DNA of 64,000 nucleotides, taken from assembly GCA_964383535.1 (NCBI GenBank), contig CAYLHS010000002.1, positions 4,555 through 68,554 on the forward strand. The letters run 5' to 3'. Of the stretch, positions 21,707-28,890 are shown piece by piece. The notes under the pieces were generated by a model, which saw nothing but the letters and a program-made list of their open reading frames with translations, had not been told where the DNA came from and searched no databases. Numbering within the stretch: position 1 is the stretch's first letter; each line of letters starts with the position of its first letter. The position numbers and the translations under genes are program-made. This DNA comes from an uncultured Acidimicrobiia bacterium. Its GTDB lineage: Bacteria; Actinomycetota; Acidimicrobiia; Spongiisociales; UBA4744.

Positions 21707-22972
21707 CTAGCTCGCTGAGGGGACTACGACCCGCCCAAAGAACAGCAGCGCCCCGGTCTCCGTATCGCGAAGCGCGAAGATGAACGGCCGGTCGATGTCG
21801 AGGGTCACGTCGACCATTGGTGCCGACGTCGCCCGCATGACGACTGCGGTCGCTGCCGCCGCCTCGGTCCCGTTCTCGTCGACGGCGATGTACGCCTCGT
21901 GAATCACCTCGTCGACGAGCAGCTTCTCTACGGTGGTCATGCCGGAGAAGTCGGCGCTGGTTGGATCAAACGCAGTCGGCATCCCGAGCGAGGTCAGCGC
22001 CGGCCTCAGCTGAGCCTGTGTACGGAAGGTGAACTTGGGAACCGTCAACCCCATGGAGGTGGACGACAGCCCGGATACCGCCTCGCTCAAGAGACCGGAT
22101 CCGAGTTCCCGTTCCACGTCGGTGAACCGCCCTTCGTCGGGAACGATCAGAAGCATCGCCAGCGTGTCACCGGAGTACGGAAGCTGAACCGCCTGCCAGC
22201 CATCTCCGTTTGCATAGTCGAATGAGGACGTCTGATGCATCATGGGCACCGTCAGTTCCGTCCCCGCGAGGGTCGTGAACGACCCGTCGGCGGTGTCGTT
22301 GGGATCGAACTGGTGTGCCCACGTGGCGTTTAGGTACACGGCGTTGACGAGTACGAGCCGGGTCAGCTCGTTGAGAGCTCCCGCGGGGATGAGATCGGTG
22401 ATCTTGTCATTGGTCCGGGACGCCACCCACTCGTTGATCTGAATCCGAGCTCTTTCGGCGCCGGTCTTGAAGTCGACCAGCCGCATCCCGGTCCCATAGT
22501 CCTCGGCAAGGAGATCGAGGAATGGTGCTTCGAACGTCAGCCCATCCTGACCCCACAGCGAGTTGGCGAAGCTCAGCTCAACCCGATCATCCCCGCTCTT
22601 GAAGCTCCTCGACTCGAGGATCTGGTCGAGCGCGTTCATCGCGGAGTGGAACGCGGGGTCTTCGAGGTCTATGTGCAGCACGGCGGCCATCTCAGCGGCC
22701 GTTACACCCCGAGCCCCCGCGTAGGTCATGGCGAGTGCGGTCATGATGCTCGCCGGTGAGAACACGACGTTTCCGCTCCCGGTCGAGAGGACCGTGTACA
22801 GGTCGGTTCCGAACGACTCCATGCTCGAAGCAGCGTTCTCTACATCGCTGGAAGGCGCGTGCGCGGCGGCCCTCTGCGCGTCCGACATCGCCATCGCAAC
22901 CGGCGGCTCAGCTGCACAGGCGCCCGCGATCAACATCCCTACGAGACTCACTATGACGGCTTTGAAGGACAC
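21707..22972 (-). CDS. Secreted serpin (serine protease inhibitor)
   Basis: NAVYLNATW motif. Hinge GTEAAAATAVV and shutter FIFALRD. AGGAGG RBS 6 nt before a GTG start. Signal peptide with an ACA-AEPP cleavage site. Confidence 0.8.
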   Translation of the reverse strand: MSFKAVIVSLVGMLIAGACAAEPPVAMAMSDAQRAAAHAPSSDVENAASSMESFGTDLYTVLSTGSGNVVFSPASIMTALAMTYAGARGVTAAEMAAVLHIDLEDPAFHSAMNALDQILESRSFKSGDDRVELSFANSLWGQDGLTFEAPFLDLLAEDYGTGMRLVDFKTGAERARIQINEWVASRTNDKITDLIPAGALNELTRLVLVNAVYLNATWAHQFDPNDTADGSFTTLAGTELTVPMMHQTSSFDYANGDGWQAVQLPYSGDTLAMLLIVPDEGRFTDVERELGSGLLSEAVSGLSSTSMGLTVPKFTFRTQAQLRPALTSLGMPTAFDPTSADFSGMTTVEKLLVDEVIHEAYIAVDENGTEAAAATAVVMRATSAPMVDVTLDIDRPFIFALRDTETGALLFFGRVVVPSAS

Positions 22973-23166
22973 AGCAACCTCCTCGCCGCTTAGACGGCAA
23001 CGACGCCGTGGAGGTTCCCGTGCAGCCGGGCTCCGCCCGGCGTACATCGTATCTCGCACGCGACCTGATCGGGCCCACAGGCCTTGGCTGCGGCGCCAAC
23101 CTCGGCGCGTTCCCCTGCCGCACCACCCGATACGAAGTACCAGTACGGGATACTGCCCGGCGAGTC

Positions 23167-23649
23167 TCAGTCGCCTCTGAGCGCGCTCAGTCCTCCTGCG
23201 ATCACCAGCGCCGTGCCAACCAGGAGTACGAAGAATCCGAATCCCGCGCTCACGGCATACGCGGTTGGAATCAGTCCTCCGGCGTATGCCTGCGCCATCC
23301 CGGTTTGCAGCGTGTCGGCCGTGTCGAACGCATCGATCATCTTGACCACTGTGTAGGCGAGCAACGCAGTGCCGATCACGGCGGTGGTCAATGAGGCGTT
23401 CTTGCTCATGGCCTTGGAGACGGGACCCATGAGCGCAAGCACGACGACCACGACGAGGAGCACCACGAGCACGATCTGCGCCCACGTATCCAGCCCACCC
23501 CAAATGGTCGGAATGCCGGCCGGGAACGTGGGGTCGGCCTGGTGCAGGTTGGGAAGGAGCGATTCACCTGCCGTCCTGAGCGCTTTCATGAAGAGCCCGA
23601 TGACGCCGATGATCACTCCTCCGAGTATGAACAGTCGACCGGTATGCAT
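23167..23649 (-). CDS. Small membrane protein, hypothetical (4 TM)
   Basis: Hydrophobic helices. No recognised family. Confidence 0.45.
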   Translation of the reverse strand: MHTGRLFILGGVIIGVIGLFMKALRTAGESLLPNLHQADPTFPAGIPTIWGGLDTWAQIVLVVLLVVVVVLALMGPVSKAMSKNASLTTAVIGTALLAYTVVKMIDAFDTADTLQTGMAQAYAGGLIPTAYAVSAGFGFFVLLVGTALVIAGGLSALRGD

Positions 23650-23734
23650 GATCTCCCTCCACTCTGATCGCCTCCGATACTACGGACCAAAGCGGACGAG
23701 TGGAGTCTGTACGGGACTCGACCTTCGGAAAAGC

Positions 23735-24433
23735 TCAGTCGCCGCGACCGAATCGAACGAGCCAGTCGGCGACGAGACGGCCGTCGATTTGGCGATCAAG
23801 CGTCGCCAAGGCGGCGTCCACGGCAGCGTCACCGACCCGTTCCCGGCGAAGGGGCAAAGATGCCCTCGAGAAGTCGGCCGTGAACTCGGGGTGTCCCTGG
23901 ATCCCGATCATGTGACCTTCGACGCCGAACATCCATACCGGGCAGTGGTCGCTCGAAGCCAGCAGGCGGGCTCCTGGCGGCAGCTCGTCGACCTGGTCCT
24001 GATGGCTCATTACGAGGTTCAGCTCCGTCCTGGCGGGCCGCATCCACGCCGTCTGCTCGACGATTCGGCCCGTGTGGACACCCACACCCCACCCTCGGGA
24101 GGACTTTGCGACATGCCCTCCGAGCGCCTGGGCAAGCATCTGGTGTCCGAAACACACTCCGGCAAACCGATGCCCGCCCTCAAAGAGATCCACGATGAGG
24201 CGCTCGAGTCGCCGGCCGGGTTCGCCGTCCTCGTATACGGAGGCCTTGGAACCGGCGGACATCCACATGTCGCACTCCCCCAGGGAGGAGGGTTCGTCTC
24301 CCGCCGTGAGGTCATAGAACCGAAGTGTCACGTCCTGGTCGGCAAACAGGTCTTCGAACATCTTCGGATAGTCACCCGTCGCAGGGAGGAGGAAGTCCGG
24401 AATGTGATCGGGAAGCAGTATGCCGATGTCCAT
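23735..24433 (-). CDS. Class I glutamine amidotransferase-like protein (GATase1)
   Basis: GVCFGHQ Cys nucleophile motif. HPE near the C-terminus. Confidence 0.8.
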   Translation of the reverse strand: MDIGILLPDHIPDFLLPATGDYPKMFEDLFADQDVTLRFYDLTAGDEPSSLGECDMWMSAGSKASVYEDGEPGRRLERLIVDLFEGGHRFAGVCFGHQMLAQALGGHVAKSSRGWGVGVHTGRIVEQTAWMRPARTELNLVMSHQDQVDELPPGARLLASSDHCPVWMFGVEGHMIGIQGHPEFTADFSRASLPLRRERVGDAAVDAALATLDRQIDGRLVADWLVRFGRGD

Positions 24434-24497
24434 GAGCTGCCGAAGTCTACGCCATACTGCTTGGCCTGAAGCCCATGAGCCGCTACGCTGTCCTGCG

Positions 24498-24566
24498 ATG
24501 AGAGACCGCTTCTTCTTTGCGTACTTTTATGCCGGGGCCGAGGCCCGGGCCGAGGGGACGCGCTAA
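24498..24566 (+). CDS. Putative attenuator leader peptide MRDRFFFAYFYAGAEARAEGTR (Phe/Tyr-rich)
   Basis: A 22-codon ORF with 7 aromatic codons in 8 consecutive positions (FFFAYFY). It lies 95 bp upstream of the DAHP synthase/CM-tyrA-pheA operon and is followed by a terminator-like hairpin. Confidence 0.5.
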   Translation: MRDRFFFAYFYAGAEARAEGTR

Positions 24567-24591
24567 GACGTAGCAGCAAGACACCCTGAGA

Positions 24592-24618
24592 CCCGGAGCC
24601 GGAGGCTCCGGGTTCTTC
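24592..24618 (+). terminator. Attenuator terminator hairpin CCCGGAGCC-gga-GGCTCCGGG followed by TTCTTCG
   Basis: Perfect 9-bp GC stem with a 3-nt loop and a pyrimidine-rich tail. Sits between the leader peptide and the aro operon RBS. Confidence 0.45.
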
Positions 24619-24660
24619 GCGTTCCCGGCGCCACCGGTCCCAAGAGAGGACCGAGACACC

Positions 24661-25725
24661 ATGGATCCCATACGCCACCGCACCGAGACGGCGTCCGTCG
24701 TGACGGTCGGTACCGTCAACTTCGGGGATGGCTCCTATCCCGTGATCGCCGGCCCCTGTGCGGTCGAAAGCGAGTCGCAGCTGATGGCCGCCGCGAGGAT
24801 CGTGGCCGGAGCCGGAGCTTCGATGCTTCGGGGAGGCGCCTACAAGCCTCGTACTTCTCCCTACTCGTTCCAGGGTCTGGGCCGCGAGGGTCTACGCCTG
24901 TTGCACGCTGCAGGCCAAGCGACGGGTCTGCCAACGATCGCCGAGGTGATGGAACCGGGAGAGGTCGAGATCGCAGCGGCGCACCTCGACATGCTTCAAG
25001 TCGGATCGCGCAACATGCAGAACGTGCCGCTCCTACGGGAACTCGGGAAGACCGGCAGTCCGGTGCTTCTCAAACGAGGCTTCGCCGCGACGATCGACGA
25101 GTGGCTGCTGGCGGCGGAGCACATCCTCAATGCAGGGAACTCTCAGATTGTGCTCTGCGAACGGGGCATTCGGACGTTCGAAACACAGACGAGAAACACG
25201 CTCGATATCAGCGCCGTTCCAGTGGCAAAAGCACTCGGTGGTCTGCCGGTGATCGTCGATCCGAGTCACGCAGCAGGACGCCGGGACCTCATCACCCCTC
25301 TGGCCCTCGCAGGGAGGGCCGTCGGAGCGGACGGCATGATGGTCGAGGTTCACCCCGACCCGGATTCGGCGCTCTCGGATGGCCCACAGCAACTCGATGG
25401 TCGCCAGTTCGCATCGCTCATGGACGCACTCGACATCCACTCGCGCAGAGAAGAGATCGACCGCATCGACCATCGCATCATCCACCTGCTTGCGCGTCGA
25501 CTTGAGACATCCCTCGAGATCGGGCGAGCAAAGACGGCCAGAGGACTCCCGTTGCACAGCCCCGCACGCGAGGAGACGATTCTGGACATCGTGGGAGGCG
25601 AGGCCGCTCGCGCGGGGCTCGATCCTCGCGTGGTGCGAGCCATGTACGAGTCTCTTCTGACGGAGTCACGAAGTGCACAGCACCGGACGGCGTTGACGGC
25701 GGTACAGGGTGGAATCGGTGGATGA
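24661..25725 (+). CDS. Bifunctional 3-deoxy-7-phosphoheptulonate (DAHP) synthase type I-beta with C-terminal chorismate mutase (AroQ) domain
   Basis: KDO8PS/DAHPS I-beta fold ([17 protein letters not shown]). C-terminal [15 protein letters not shown]...GRAK chorismate mutase motifs. Confidence 0.85.
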
Positions 25726-26761
25726 TCGGCATGCCGGCATACTCGGCACCGGCTTGATCGGGGCGTCGATCGGGCTTTCGCTGAGTCGACTCGGATGGAA
25801 TGTCATCGGCTGGGACGAGGATCCCCTTGCGTTGTCGATCGCCCTATCACGCGGAGCCGTCTCGTCGGCGGCCACATCCCACGACGACCTGACGTCTCGC
25901 GAACTCGATCTGTTGGTCATAGCAACGCCGCCCAAGGTCACCCCGCAGATCCTCAGGGGACTCACGACCGAGGCACTCGTCACCGACGTCACCGGGATCA
26001 AGACGGACGTGATCGTTGCCGGCGCCGGTCTGACCCGGTTCGTGTCGAGCCACCCGATGGCCGGCAGAGAGGTGAGCGGGCCAGAGGCAGCGGACGCATC
26101 TCTCTTCAACGGAGCCGCGTGGATCATCGTCACCGATGGAGCCTCCGAGACGGATATCACTGCGCTCGAACGAATCGTTCGACTCCTCGGCGCCCACCCG
26201 GAGCGCATGGACGCCGAGCGCCACGACCGGGTCGTGACCGCCATCAGTCATTTGCCTCAGATCCTTGCCTCCACACTGATCACGGAAGCGACACGGACGG
26301 TGCCCGACCTTTCGCTGATCGGAGGCAGCTTCCGCGATCTCACCCGAGTCGCCGCATCTGATCCGGTCCTGTGGTCCGACCTGTTGGACACCAACCGGGA
26401 CCTCGTGGTCGAGATGCTCGCCGCCTTCGAAAAGCGCCTCGCTGGCATGTCGAGTCTTCTCGAGGCACGTCGAAAAGACGACCTGTTCGACTCACTCTCA
26501 GAGTCCGCGAGGCTTCACCGCGAACTCCACGCGCCGGTCGGTCTCGTCGAGGTCGCGCTCCCGGACCGACCAGGCGAACTCGCTGCCGTCGGGCGCGCGC
26601 TGGACCACGCCCGCGTCGACGTACGAGATCTCCAGCTCCGCCATGCCCCCTATGGGGGAGGTGGCCTGCTGCGAGTCTTCGTACACAACGCGGACCTCCC
26701 GACGCTGAGCGCGGCACTCGCCGCAGAAGGGCTGACCGTCACCAGAGAGGAGAAACGATGA
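25709..26761 (+). CDS. tyrA: Prephenate dehydrogenase with C-terminal ACT domain
   Basis: ILGTGLIGASIG Rossmann motif. HPMAG motif. C-terminal ACT domain. GTG start overlapping the upstream gene. Confidence 0.8.
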   Translation: MESVDDRHAGILGTGLIGASIGLSLSRLGWNVIGWDEDPLALSIALSRGAVSSAATSHDDLTSRELDLLVIATPPKVTPQILRGLTTEALVTDVTGIKTDVIVAGAGLTRFVSSHPMAGREVSGPEAADASLFNGAAWIIVTDGASETDITALERIVRLLGAHPERMDAERHDRVVTAISHLPQILASTLITEATRTVPDLSLIGGSFRDLTRVAASDPVLWSDLLDTNRDLVVEMLAAFEKRLAGMSSLLEARRKDDLFDSLSESARLHRELHAPVGLVEVALPDRPGELAAVGRALDHARVDVRDLQLRHAPYGGGGLLRVFVHNADLPTLSAALAAEGLTVTREEKR

Positions 26762-27567
26762 GGATCGGCTATCAGGGTGAGGAGCATTCGTACAGCCACC
26801 AGGTCGTGTCAGAACTGTTCCCAGGTGCCGAGACGCGAGGACTGACGAGCTTCCCCAGCGTGTTCGCCGCACTGGCCGACGGCTCCGTGGACCGGCTGGT
26901 GGTTCCCATCGAGAACTCGACCACAGGGAGCATTCTCGAGGTGCTCGATCGCCTCGCTGTATCCAACGCCTCCATCGTGGCGGAGTACTACGGGCATGTG
27001 CGCCACGCGCTCATTGGACGACCAGGAGCGACCACGGAGACGATCCGACGCGTCCTGTCGCATCCGGAGGCGCTCGCACAGGCCAGAGAGACACTGGCGA
27101 TCAACGGGTGGGAACCTGTCCCCGTTCCAGACACGGCCGGCGCCGTGCGGATCATCGCGGAGGGGGGAGACCCCGCCCAGGCCGCCCTCGCCCCACCCGC
27201 TTCGCGAGAGCGGTACGGGCTGGAGATTCTCATGTCGGATGTCGTGGACCGCGCCCACAACGCGACCCGGTTCGTGGTACTCGCGCCGGATTCCTGCGAA
27301 CCGGTCATTGATGCGGACAAGACCTCGATCTGCTTCGCAACATCGCACACGCCGGGAGCACTGGCCCTCGTCCTCACCGAGCTCGGCCTGCGGGGCGCGA
27401 ACCTCACCCGAATCGAGTCGAGGCCGGGCGACACTGCCTGGACGTACCGGTTCTTCGTCGACCTCCTTCATGCTCCAGGACCTGAAGGCGTCGAACGGGT
27501 CCTCCAGCCTCCGCCGGCATCCATGCACGAACTCACCGTGCTCGGATCGTATCGAGCCGTTCGCTAG
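26758..27567 (+). CDS. pheA: Prephenate dehydratase with ACT domain
   Basis: PDT domain (TRF, ESRP motifs). ATGA overlap with the tyrA stop. RBS AGAGAGGAG. Confidence 0.85.
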   Translation: MRIGYQGEEHSYSHQVVSELFPGAETRGLTSFPSVFAALADGSVDRLVVPIENSTTGSILEVLDRLAVSNASIVAEYYGHVRHALIGRPGATTETIRRVLSHPEALAQARETLAINGWEPVPVPDTAGAVRIIAEGGDPAQAALAPPASRERYGLEILMSDVVDRAHNATRFVVLAPDSCEPVIDADKTSICFATSHTPGALALVLTELGLRGANLTRIESRPGDTAWTYRFFVDLLHAPGPEGVERVLQPPPASMHELTVLGSYRAVR

Positions 27568-27619: not shown

Positions 27620-28270
27620 ATGGATATCGAGTCGAGAGCGAAACGGCACGCAGCGTTGGGCGACCCGATTCGACTTGCCCTCGTCGACGACCTGTCCACC
27701 TCGGATCGCACTCCCGGCGAGCTGTCGCAGCGCCATGGTGTGCCATCCAACCTCCTCGCGCACCATCTCGACGTTCTCGAGAAGGCAGCGTTGGTCGTTC
27801 GACTGTCGTCATCGGGCGATGCTCGGCGCCGGTATGTCCACCTCAAGCACGAAGCACTCACCGGGCTCGGCGTTTCGTTTCCGGCTCCGGACGGTCCAGT
27901 GCTCTTCATCTGCACGCACAACTCCGCCAGATCGCAACTCGCGGCAGCCGTGTGGTCGGAGAGCCTCAGTGAACCAGCATCGAGTGCCGGCACTCACCCT
28001 GCAGAGAGGATCCATCCCGGCGCCGTGGAAGCAGCAGCCCGAGCAGGCTTGGACATCAGCGGCGGACGACCACGGTCGATCGACGAGATCGAGCTTCAGC
28101 AGTCACTCGTGATCACGGTCTGTGACCGGGCGCACGAGGAACTGACCCCGGAGGCAACGTGGTGGCACTGGTCGACGCCCGATCCGGTCGACCTGGCCAC
28201 ACCGGAGGCATTCGATGGTGCGCTCGCTGCACTCCGAGACAGAATCGAAACCCTTGGGAGGACTCGATGA
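27620..28270 (+). CDS. ArsR-family HTH regulator fused to LMW-PTP-type arsenate reductase (ArsC)
   Basis: N-terminal ArsR HTH (LGDPIRLALVDDL...ELS...LAHHL). C-terminal CTHNSARS P-loop of a thioredoxin-coupled ArsC. Confidence 0.75.
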   Translation: MDIESRAKRHAALGDPIRLALVDDLSTSDRTPGELSQRHGVPSNLLAHHLDVLEKAALVVRLSSSGDARRRYVHLKHEALTGLGVSFPAPDGPVLFICTHNSARSQLAAAVWSESLSEPASSAGTHPAERIHPGAVEAAARAGLDISGGRPRSIDEIELQQSLVITVCDRAHEELTPEATWWHWSTPDPVDLATPEAFDGALAALRDRIETLGRTR

Positions 28271-28890
28271 CCACCGACGTCATTCGCCAGATCACCGACC
28301 GTATCGCACCGGACTACGAGCAGATCTTTCCTCGGGAGATCACCCAGCGAATCGTCGCCGAGTCGCTGAGCACGTTGAAGGAGCAAGCGACCATCACCGC
28401 ATGGCTCCCGACCTTCGCTGAGCGATTCGCTCGAGATCGGCTGCGCGCGCTCGCAAAGGCCGAGCATCTCGTCGACGACGAACGCCCCGCCGTGCTCTTT
28501 CTCTGCGTGCACAATGCAGGCAGATCGCAGATGGCGGCCGGCCTGCTCCGACACCTCTCAGGCGGGGCAATCGCGGTGTTCTCAGGTGGTTCCGAGCCTG
28601 CCTCCGAGATCAACTCGGTTGCCGTGCAGGCCATGGCCGAGATCGGCATCGATATCACGAGCGAATTCCCCAAGCCGTGGACCAACGAGGTCGTCGGTGC
28701 CGTCGATGTCGTCGTGTCGATGGGGTGCGGTGACGCCTGCCCCATACTCCCGGGAAAGCGCTACCTCGACTGGGAACTGGAGGATCCTGCCGGCAAGACC
28801 ATCGAGGTCGTACGGCGGGTTCGTGACGAGATCGCGCGACGTATCAGGGGCCTCGTCACTGAACTCGGCGTCGAACCGCGGACTGTCTGA
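28267..28890 (+). CDS. arsC: LMW-PTP-type arsenate reductase with about 70-aa N-terminal extension
   Basis: CVHNAGRSQMA P-loop. ATGA overlap with the upstream gene. GGGAGGA RBS. Confidence 0.75.
   Translation: MTTDVIRQITDRIAPDYEQIFPREITQRIVAESLSTLKEQATITAWLPTFAERFARDRLRALAKAEHLVDDERPAVLFLCVHNAGRSQMAAGLLRHLSGGAIAVFSGGSEPASEINSVAVQAMAEIGIDITSEFPKPWTNEVVGAVDVVVSMGCGDACPILPGKRYLDWELEDPAGKTIEVVRRVRDEIARRIRGLVTELGVEPRTV

Follow-up and report, generated by a model that had tools for sequence, protein, structure and literature searches.

The DNA analysed here is a 64,000-nucleotide (nt) stretch of contig CAYLHS010000002.1 (assembly GCA_964383535.1) from an uncultured Acidimicrobiia bacterium, referred to below as the window; its GC content is 63.7%. 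On the forward strand it carries three genes for aromatic amino acid synthesis, and directly upstream of them a short leader that is very probably a transcription attenuator. The first gene (24661–25725) encodes an aroG-type DAHP (3-deoxy-D-arabino-heptulosonate 7-phosphate) synthase of type I-beta with a fused C-terminal chorismate mutase (DAHPS-CM; Pfam DAHP_synth_1, 1.2e–74, and CM_2, 1.4e–19). It is followed by tyrA (25709–26761, prephenate dehydrogenase plus ACT; Pfam PDH_N, PDH_C and ACT) and pheA (26758–27567, prephenate dehydratase plus ACT; Pfam PDT, 1.4e–51, and ACT). The tyrA start, a GTG at 25709 or 25718, lies ahead of the DAHPS-CM stop (TGA, 25723–25725) and overlaps the end of that gene, and pheA and tyrA share an ATGA (pheA ATG at 26758, its real start; tyrA TGA at 26759–26761). 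Given these overlapping junctions, we treat the three genes as one operon. By their Pfam identities the products make phenylalanine (Phe) and tyrosine (Tyr), which agrees with the three-gene aromatic operon proposed in an initial annotation of this DNA. A divergent class-I glutamine amidotransferase (GATase) gene (Pfam; minus strand, 23735–24433, start at 24433) lies upstream. The gap between the GATase and DAHPS-CM genes, 227 base pairs (bp) long (24434–24660), contains the features that had drawn attention to the locus, and all of them can be read in the sequence: a 22-codon open reading frame (ORF) at 24498–24566, GC-rich palindromic segments, a perfect 9-bp stem-loop and a TTCTTCG tail just before the ribosome-binding site of the operon.

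The leader ORF, on the forward strand, begins with an ATG at 24498, comprises 22 sense codons (MRDRFFFAYFYAGAEARAEGTR) and ends with a TAA at 24564–24566. Its codons 5–11 (24510–24530; TTC TTC TTT GCG TAC TTT TAT) spell FFFAYFY. Six of these seven codons specify Phe or Tyr (six of eight at most), and the earlier count of seven in eight was a miscount. Across all six frames of the whole window this block is the sole place with at least five Phe/Tyr codons in seven; from the window's codon frequencies, the expected number of chance windows with at least six in seven is ∼0.0004. As in attenuators of the trpL/pheL/hisL class, a short leader ORF is thus enriched in codons for the amino acids that are made downstream.

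Orthologous loci were gathered through the DAHPS-CM protein alone, without reference to the leader. Nine came from one-genome-per-species contigs (L001–L009), at least three were metagenome loci among the matches listed (L081–L083, with the identical leader regions of L081 and L082 counted once), and nine were found by protein search and contig look-ups (L161–L169). Together with the window this gives 21 sequences, that is, the window and 20 distinct loci on Acidimicrobiia-type contigs with protein identities of 53–90%; unless stated otherwise, the counts below refer to this set. The closest relatives of the DAHPS-CM protein come from metagenome-assembled genomes (MAGs) labelled Acidimicrobiia, and one protein in its own 90% identity cluster bears the name Acidimicrobiia bacterium. 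We found the same succession of leader ORF, hairpin and T-containing tail upstream of the DAHPS-CM gene in all 20 relatives, which confirms the conservation that the initial annotation had asked for. The upstream neighbour varies (divergent GATase, a co-directional aminoglycoside-phosphotransferase (APH)-like gene, or others), as do the genes downstream (tyrA-pheA, pheA alone, or unrelated genes). The element is kept in every gene context and therefore travels with the DAHPS-CM gene. In L003, a 90% identical relative, the DAHPS-CM ORF (L003:3001–3933) ends at 310 codons versus ∼354, and the same-cluster protein P0125 also has 310 amino acids; the chorismate mutase domain may really be truncated there, or a frameshift or a fault in the assembly may be the cause.

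The ORF occupies the same position in all 21 sequences, with ATG (19) or GTG (2) as start and TAA, TAG or TGA as stop, and is 21–23 codons long in all of them except L166, where it has 17. Insertions and deletions inside it are whole codons only, and the untranslated linker from the stop to the hairpin changes in length without regard to codon size (25 nt in the window, 23–32 nt in loci with a full-length ORF, 39 nt in L166). Codons 7, 9 and 11 read T[T/A][C/T], i.e. Phe or Tyr, without exception, and codon 5 does so in 18 of 21. At these conserved positions TTT, TTC, TAT and TAC swap freely. The intervening codons 6, 8 and 10 vary, with 11, 6 and 9 different codons, respectively. Such a codon-level pattern is unlike the product of RNA-structure constraint, and we read it as the signature of a small ORF that is probably decoded codon by codon. 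The initial annotation had also described the aromatic codons as rare TTT and TAT. This holds in part. Three of the six are common codons; TTT is rare in the window's genes (23 versus 316 TTC), TAT less so (57 versus 174 TAC), and the leaders are indeed enriched in Phe codons ending in U (∼42% versus 7% in the window's genes).

Downstream of the aromatic block, the peptide has a conserved C-terminal motif, A/T-G-x-x-A-R-x-x-G-T-R, which coincides with RNA stems, and the two hypervariable residues of the peptide map to a hairpin loop. In L166 (1043–1096) the ORF ends early (MSQRFYFAYFFTGPRPG*), within the second of the RNA segments described below, and the RNA segments downstream are kept. Since the stems are invariant, the loops hypervariable and the RNA retained despite the truncation in L166, the C-terminal half of the peptide is conserved as RNA, not as protein; as protein, L166 shows it to be dispensable.

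Upstream of the ORF there is a putative promoter, on the same strand as the ORF. In the window, a –35-like hexamer TTGGCC (24461–24466) and a –10-like hexamer TACGCT (24484–24489) precede the leader, the latter ending 8 nt before the ATG. A TTGnnn-like hexamer (with the initial TTG in 19 of 21), a spacer of 17–18 bp and a TAnnnT hexamer are found in every sequence; alignment positions T32, A33 and T37 of the –10-like hexamer are invariant or nearly so. The distance from TAnnnT to the start codon is 6–12 nt, with no Shine-Dalgarno (SD) sequence in between. This spacing suggests a leaderless or near-leaderless leader ORF that would be translated without an SD sequence, the position of the transcription start itself likewise being predicted. 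Leaderless ORFs are usual in Actinobacteria. The element thus extends beyond the interval that was originally flagged (24498–24660), and two further structures downstream of the terminator, segment 5 and an SD hairpin, also belong to it.

Five segments with CCGG cores, all on the forward strand, are nearly invariant in the family. Segment 1 (GCCGGGGCC, 24531–24539) is a GC-rich near-palindrome and the 5′ arm of an inner 1:2 hairpin. Segment 2 (24542–24563) combines a second GC-rich near-palindrome, GGCCCGGGC (24542–24550), with the purine run GAGGGGACGCGC. The 5′ arm of the terminator, ACCCGGAGCC (24591–24600), together with the upstream flank CACCCTGAGA, which extends the antiterminator, forms segment 3 (24582–24600); the 3′ arm GGCTCCGGG and the tail form segment 4 (24604–24619). 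Segment 5 (CCCGGCGCC, 24624–24632) is complementary to segment 4. The family versions of the last three read ACCCGGAGCC, GGCUCCGGGU and CCCGG(A/C)GCC, respectively. Segments 1 and 2 are joined by a hypervariable loop, and the stems are invariant.

The hairpin formed by segments 3 and 4, CCCGGAGCC-GGA-GGCTCCGGG (24592–24612), has 9 perfect bp (10 with A24591–U24613) and a computed free energy of –19.8 kcal/mol; the tail TTCTTCG (24613–24619) follows directly on its 3′ side. A conserved GC hairpin of 9–10 bp (–14.7 to –19.8 kcal/mol) with a T-containing tail is present in 21 of 21 sequences and is predicted to terminate transcription. The nine nt of the tail contain 5–8 T in 19 of the 20 relatives, and the strongest tails (7–8 T) are those of L006, L008, L009, L165 and L166. 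Each family locus has the hairpin motif once, and a search of the 64-kb window and of 138 fetched loci from outside the family gave no further copies.

Two explicit structures were scored on the alignment: OFF, in which the Phe/Tyr codons plus segment 1 pair with segment 2 and segment 3 pairs with segment 4, and ON, in which segment 2 pairs with segment 3 plus the extension and segment 4 with segment 5. In OFF, 84% of cells are paired (80% in the 1:2 helix, 98.6% in the 3:4 terminator alone), and in ON 86% (94.6% in the 2:3 core, 93% in 4:5), versus 30–56% in controls with the partners slid by 1–3 columns. RNAalifold recovers both the inner 1:2 hairpin and the 3:4 terminator, and the closing pair of 1:2 covaries (G-C in nine loci, A-U in five). 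Mutually exclusive antiterminator and terminator pairings, for which the initial annotation had proposed a check, are kept in all 21 sequences.

The 2:3 duplex amounts to –24.0 kcal/mol in the window and to –18.9 to –29.1 kcal/mol over the family. The native duplex beats the mean of segment 3 flank shuffles in 21 of 21 sequences and that of segment 2 flank shuffles in 20 of 21 (exception L006), with P-values of 0.002–0.014 in divergent lineages (L007, L081, L083, L164 and L168). The extensions of the antiterminator are specific to lineages and yet complementary: GGGG/CCCU in the window, UCUUGG/CCAGGA in L007, UGAAGGG/CCCUUCA in L164 and UCGACGUG/CACGACGA in L081. A comparison of cognate with non-cognate duplexes was clear for the extension in L007, L009 and L081/083. 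It told nothing within the G-rich clade, since every run of GGGG there can pair with every run of CCCC. The unmasked full-length leader RNA folds into 1:2 plus the terminator in 21 of 21. With a ribosome footprint masked on codons 9–11, the nascent RNA folds into 2:3 in all 21 sequences (–20.9 to –35.2 kcal/mol; –20.9 to –30.9 kcal/mol in the first 12). Placing a ribosome at the stop codon in equilibrium folds of the nascent RNA did not by itself separate the states. Segment 1 begins at the nucleotide right after codon 11, and a ribosome with one of codons 9–11 in its A site would therefore cover segment 1, as we deduce from footprint size. By computation, then, antiterminator and terminator exclude each other in this leader, and formation of the antiterminator is in turn prevented by a 1:2 helix whose 5′ strand a stalled ribosome would cover, as is characteristic of this class of attenuators.

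We conclude that the element is, with high probability, a leader-peptide attenuator of transcription that works through the ribosome, senses charged tRNA-Phe and tRNA-Tyr and controls the DAHPS-CM-tyrA-pheA operon. The pheL/trpL-type attenuation suggested initially is thereby supported: every prediction that could be checked on the sequence (anatomy, conservation, exclusive folds) held, and the regulation itself is deduced from these. The anatomy, the conservation of codons and pairings and the two exclusive folds are observed; the transcription start, the translation of the ORF, the starvation response and the efficiency with which the window's weak U tract terminates are predicted as follows. 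Transcription would start at the leader ATG or a few nt before it, from the TTGnnn-17-TAnnnT promoter, and the ORF would be translated without an SD sequence. When Phe and Tyr are plentiful, the ribosome would reach the stop codon, 1:2 would re-form behind it (with participation of the pyrimidine-rich Phe/Tyr codons), and the purine run that extends 2:3 would be covered. With 1:2 formed, 3:4 would pair into a hairpin of about –20 kcal/mol followed by the U-rich tail, and RNA polymerase would terminate ∼120 nt into the transcript. When Phe or Tyr is scarce, the ribosome would stall on codons 5–11, most effectively on 9–11, and cover segment 1; segment 2 would then pair with segment 3 once the latter is made, no terminator would form, and DAHPS-CM, tyrA and pheA would be transcribed. 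We speculate that the inner 1:2 hairpin, which lies 10–11 nt before an invariant GCGC, might serve as a pause site and so keep polymerase and ribosome in step.

A number of points weigh against this conclusion. It rests on computed folding and on sequence from an uncultured MAG. With 4 T in 9 nt (TTCTTCGCG; L003 also has 4), the U tract of the window is weak. Simple consensus scanning with E. coli-style thresholds, which are ill-suited to this high-GC element, called neither a terminator (the tail has 4 T in the 8 bases considered) nor a promoter (TACGCT matches TATAAT at three of six positions) at the leader. Strict covariation is thin with the paired segments almost invariant, and the covariation measures are not significant in shuffle controls of the OFF structure. 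This scarcity follows from segments that barely vary, as expected for bases that have to fit two partners. In the window's G-rich clade the antiterminator extension is barely better than shuffles (P-value 0.06–0.15). Even under the ribosome mask, equilibrium folding mostly favours the terminator state, and the attenuator model therefore requires kinetic, i.e. co-transcriptional, control; moreover, the window's untranslated nascent RNA prefers 2:3 already at equilibrium. A stall at codons 5–7 alone would spare the inner 1:2 hairpin. Finally, the attenuator model does not account for segment 5.

Segment 5 is the only unusual feature of the element. The 4:5 hairpin forms in all 21 sequences once segment 3 is blocked, and segment 5 cannot join the termination decision because it is transcribed after the termination point. 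Next to it lies the SD sequence of the DAHPS-CM gene, AGAGAGGA (24643–24650, forward strand, ahead of the gene start at 24661), half-covered by a local hairpin CGGTCC/GGACCG (24635–24653). In other clades the anti-SD strand changes with the type of SD (CCUCC/GGAGG, ACUCC/GGAGU, GCUCC/GGAGC); on the MAFFT alignment only 68% of cells of this hairpin are paired. The classical attenuator model does not require such a hairpin. These features could indicate that the leader peptide controls translation, with a stalled ribosome opening the ribosome-binding site of DAHPS-CM by remodelling the 5′ region through segments 4 and 5 and the SD hairpin, and with a 3:4 hairpin that is no terminator. Such control would accommodate the window's weak U tract, the half-covered SD and the conservation of a segment that is made past the termination point and pairs with segment 4; one paper, moreover, calls aroR of Corynebacterium glutamicum a translational regulatory leader peptide (PMC7356990). 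We nevertheless consider it improbable. A T-rich tail follows the hairpin directly in 21 of 21 sequences, reaching 7–8 T of 9 in the five loci named above. Whether 3:4 or 2:3 is forced makes no consistent difference to the computed accessibility of the SD (means 0.37 and 0.42, respectively, mixed signs), and in the window clade the SD hairpin is present in both states. By the same token, the idea that 4:5 pairing frees the SD in read-through RNA as a general rule was rejected, the changes in accessibility being inconsistent. Within the transcription attenuator, a further role of segment 5 is conceivable. A five-segment relay, which would alternate between 1:2 / 3:4 / 5 free and 1 free / 2:3 / 4:5, could give the read-through RNA a conformation of its own and, with it, a second function; we regard this as a tentative idea, with the odds rather against it. 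Segment 5 could then lock the ON fold, affect translation or stability of the DAHPS-CM message, or serve as a site for a DNA- or RNA-binding factor, and the relay could be driven by a leader ORF translated without an SD sequence from the very 5′ end.

A second explanation sees in the leader a ligand- or protein-binding RNA (a riboswitch, a T-box-like element or a target of the TRAP/PyrR kind) in which the small ORF is incidental. The extreme conservation of five CCGG-core segments with little strict covariation would fit such an RNA, as would the T-box-like motifs found before homologous genes elsewhere (see below). It is highly unlikely in view of the following. No Rfam 15 leader family, Phe_leader (RF01859) included, matched positions 23500–25500 of the window at E ≤ 10, and none matched in six relatives at E ≤ 1; the T-box covariance model (RF00230) matched neither the window nor the six relatives, and the window has no T-box motif. 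A constraint on RNA alone leaves unexplained why T[T/A][C/T] recurs at every second codon with Phe and Tyr swapped, and why the start, an in-frame stop of varying type and whole-codon indels are kept. The putative promoter, in addition, would put the 5′ end of the RNA at the start of the ORF. Least probable of all, and only barely worth entertaining, is that the CCCGGAGCC / GGCTCCGGG repeats are operator half-sites at which a dimeric factor forms a roadblock, or that the ORF encodes a functional micropeptide beside a structural or insulating hairpin: the three near-identical half-sites in inverted orientation (segments 3, 4 and 5) and the conserved C-terminal peptide motif speak for these two, but the half-sites lie 95–135 nt downstream of the promoter within the transcribed leader, no regulator gene is conserved beside the element (the neighbours differ between loci), the conserved residues coincide with RNA stems and the variable ones with loops, L166 truncates the peptide and keeps the RNA, and a micropeptide leaves the linkage to DAHPS-CM in every gene context unexplained.

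The leader-peptide attenuator has documented counterparts. The initial annotation held that such attenuators are barely documented in high-GC Gram-positive bacteria; this overlooks the aroR-aroF leader of C. glutamicum. There, according to published accounts, a leader ORF with Phe-Tyr-Phe lies upstream of the DAHP synthase gene aroF and was found by RNA-seq (PMC11802643, PMC4046766, PMC3890552). As summarised in one of these, expression of aroR-aroF rises under Phe limitation through ribosome stalling (Neshat 2014, J Biotechnol 190:55, per PMC11802643). Leader peptides of that species can also lack a ribosome-binding site, as does the ilvB attenuator leader in the account given by PMC4046766 (citing Morbach 2000). 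An actinobacterial system with a small Phe/Tyr leader ORF before a DAHP synthase operon, aroR-aroF is the closest documented analogue of the window's element; we liken the two as functional analogues by the description in the literature. The element differs from aroR in coming from another actinobacterial class, Acidimicrobiia, in its longer aromatic run (four to six codons in the family, at least every second position) and in its five segments with CCGG cores. C. glutamicum aroF encodes a type I-alpha DAHP synthase, whereas the window gene is of type I-beta and fused to chorismate mutase.

The Escherichia coli pheL peptide contains FFFAFFFTF; the window, in contrast, mixes Tyr with Phe codons, as would suit an operon whose products supply Tyr as well as Phe and include the enzyme at the entry to the common pathway. 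The logic of pheL-pheA and pheM-pheST is the one proposed for the window: a short ORF rich in Phe codons, alternative 1:2, 2:3 and 3:4 pairings, and an intrinsic terminator, in the window a predicted one, ahead of a gene for Phe synthesis (pheL: PMC11802643). Differences from pheL are the lack of an SD sequence for the leader ORF, the high GC content, the weak U tract and the lack of a match to any Rfam model. Within Actinobacteria, leader-peptide attenuators have been predicted for trp, ilvB and leuS/trpS genes (Seliverstov et al. 2005, PMC1262725), and they resemble the present one as classical attenuators of high-GC Gram-positives in which a leader ORF is combined with a terminator, here a predicted one. 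In the same survey, no conserved regulatory RNA structure was found ahead of the Phe or Tyr operons of Actinobacteria (PMC1262725). The T-box leaders that precede aromatic biosynthesis genes in Firmicutes share with the proposed attenuator the sensing of tRNA charging and antitermination. T-boxes recognise uncharged tRNA by direct binding and work without translation, whereas the system proposed here would rely on translation of the leader.

Outside the family, several loci with related genes showed other leader-like features. In L112 (1171–1470), upstream of a homologous DAHPS-CM gene of another lineage, the T-box-like motif GGGTGGTAACGCG occurs twice, apparently in tandem, with a terminator. 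L170 (1080–1200), from a more distant homologue (55% identity), has the T-box-like motif GGGTGGTACCACGG and a terminator. Both loci lie outside Acidimicrobiia, and in both the motifs occupy the position of the leader ORF; the assignment is by motif only. Aromatic leader ORFs unrelated to the family were seen at L093:1061–1290, L094:1054–1300, L096:1037–1290, L099:572–830, L061:2509–2780 and L072:1605–1870. Their peptides include ..SYYWFYFS.., ..WYYYFY.., MFYYYY.., ..FAYPFYFS.. and ..YAYWFYFS.., some with Trp codons, and each ORF is followed by a strong GC hairpin and a run of 5–7 T before genes for an ACT-domain DAHP synthase or tyrA-like genes. Judged by eye, a TTGACA / TAnnnT promoter-like pair lies upstream of those in L061, L072, L093, L094 and L096. 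Two of these are MAGs of Chloroflexota, L061 from Sphaerobacter and L072 from Ktedonobacteraceae; L093, L094, L096 and L099 are metagenome contigs. Together, the T-box-like motifs and these unrelated leader ORFs mark the region upstream of such genes as a recurrent site for sensing tRNA charging. Separately, L087, L100, L106 and L124 share a conserved terminator-like hairpin, GCAGACGCAGGA..TCCTGCGTCTTTTGTTT, ∼150–330 nt upstream of the start of the match; it precedes DAHPS-CM genes with an N-terminal ACT-like domain.

Some further observations concern the surroundings of the operon in the window. A 116-amino-acid minus-strand ORF that spans the leader region (24328–24678) was dismissed as spurious: Pfam matches none of it, and all three minus frames are broken in L006 and L166. 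Two genes upstream of the operon, a minus-strand ORF of 598 amino acids (21707–23503) contains a full-length serpin domain (Pfam Serpin, 1.8e–107) behind an N-terminal extension of ∼225 residues. Serpins are uncommon in bacteria. Directly 3′ of the operon there are two overlapping ORF calls on the forward strand. The first (27620–28270) combines an ArsR-type helix-turn-helix with a low-molecular-weight phosphatase domain and the second (28159–28890) encodes another low-molecular-weight phosphatase-like protein; the pair looks like an arsenic-resistance-type module.

Overall, the 21 sequences define what is, judged from their conservation, a class-wide Phe/Tyr leader-peptide attenuator family, new within a well-known mechanism; our understanding of attenuation itself is unchanged by it. 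Acidimicrobiia are a widespread and almost entirely uncultured actinobacterial class for which the literature searched describes no RNA-level regulation, and our search found no link between Acidimicrobiia and leader peptides. For this class, the family fills the gap left by the 2005 survey of Actinobacteria. It could join Rfam and help to annotate small ORFs and the starts of operons in MAGs more accurately. Since unrelated aromatic leader ORFs also occur in other phyla, the Acidimicrobiia family suggests that the literature greatly understates how common leader-peptide control of the first enzyme of the shikimate pathway is outside model organisms. For the Acidimicrobiia themselves, the element supplies a well-supported model of how aromatic amino acid biosynthesis may be regulated.

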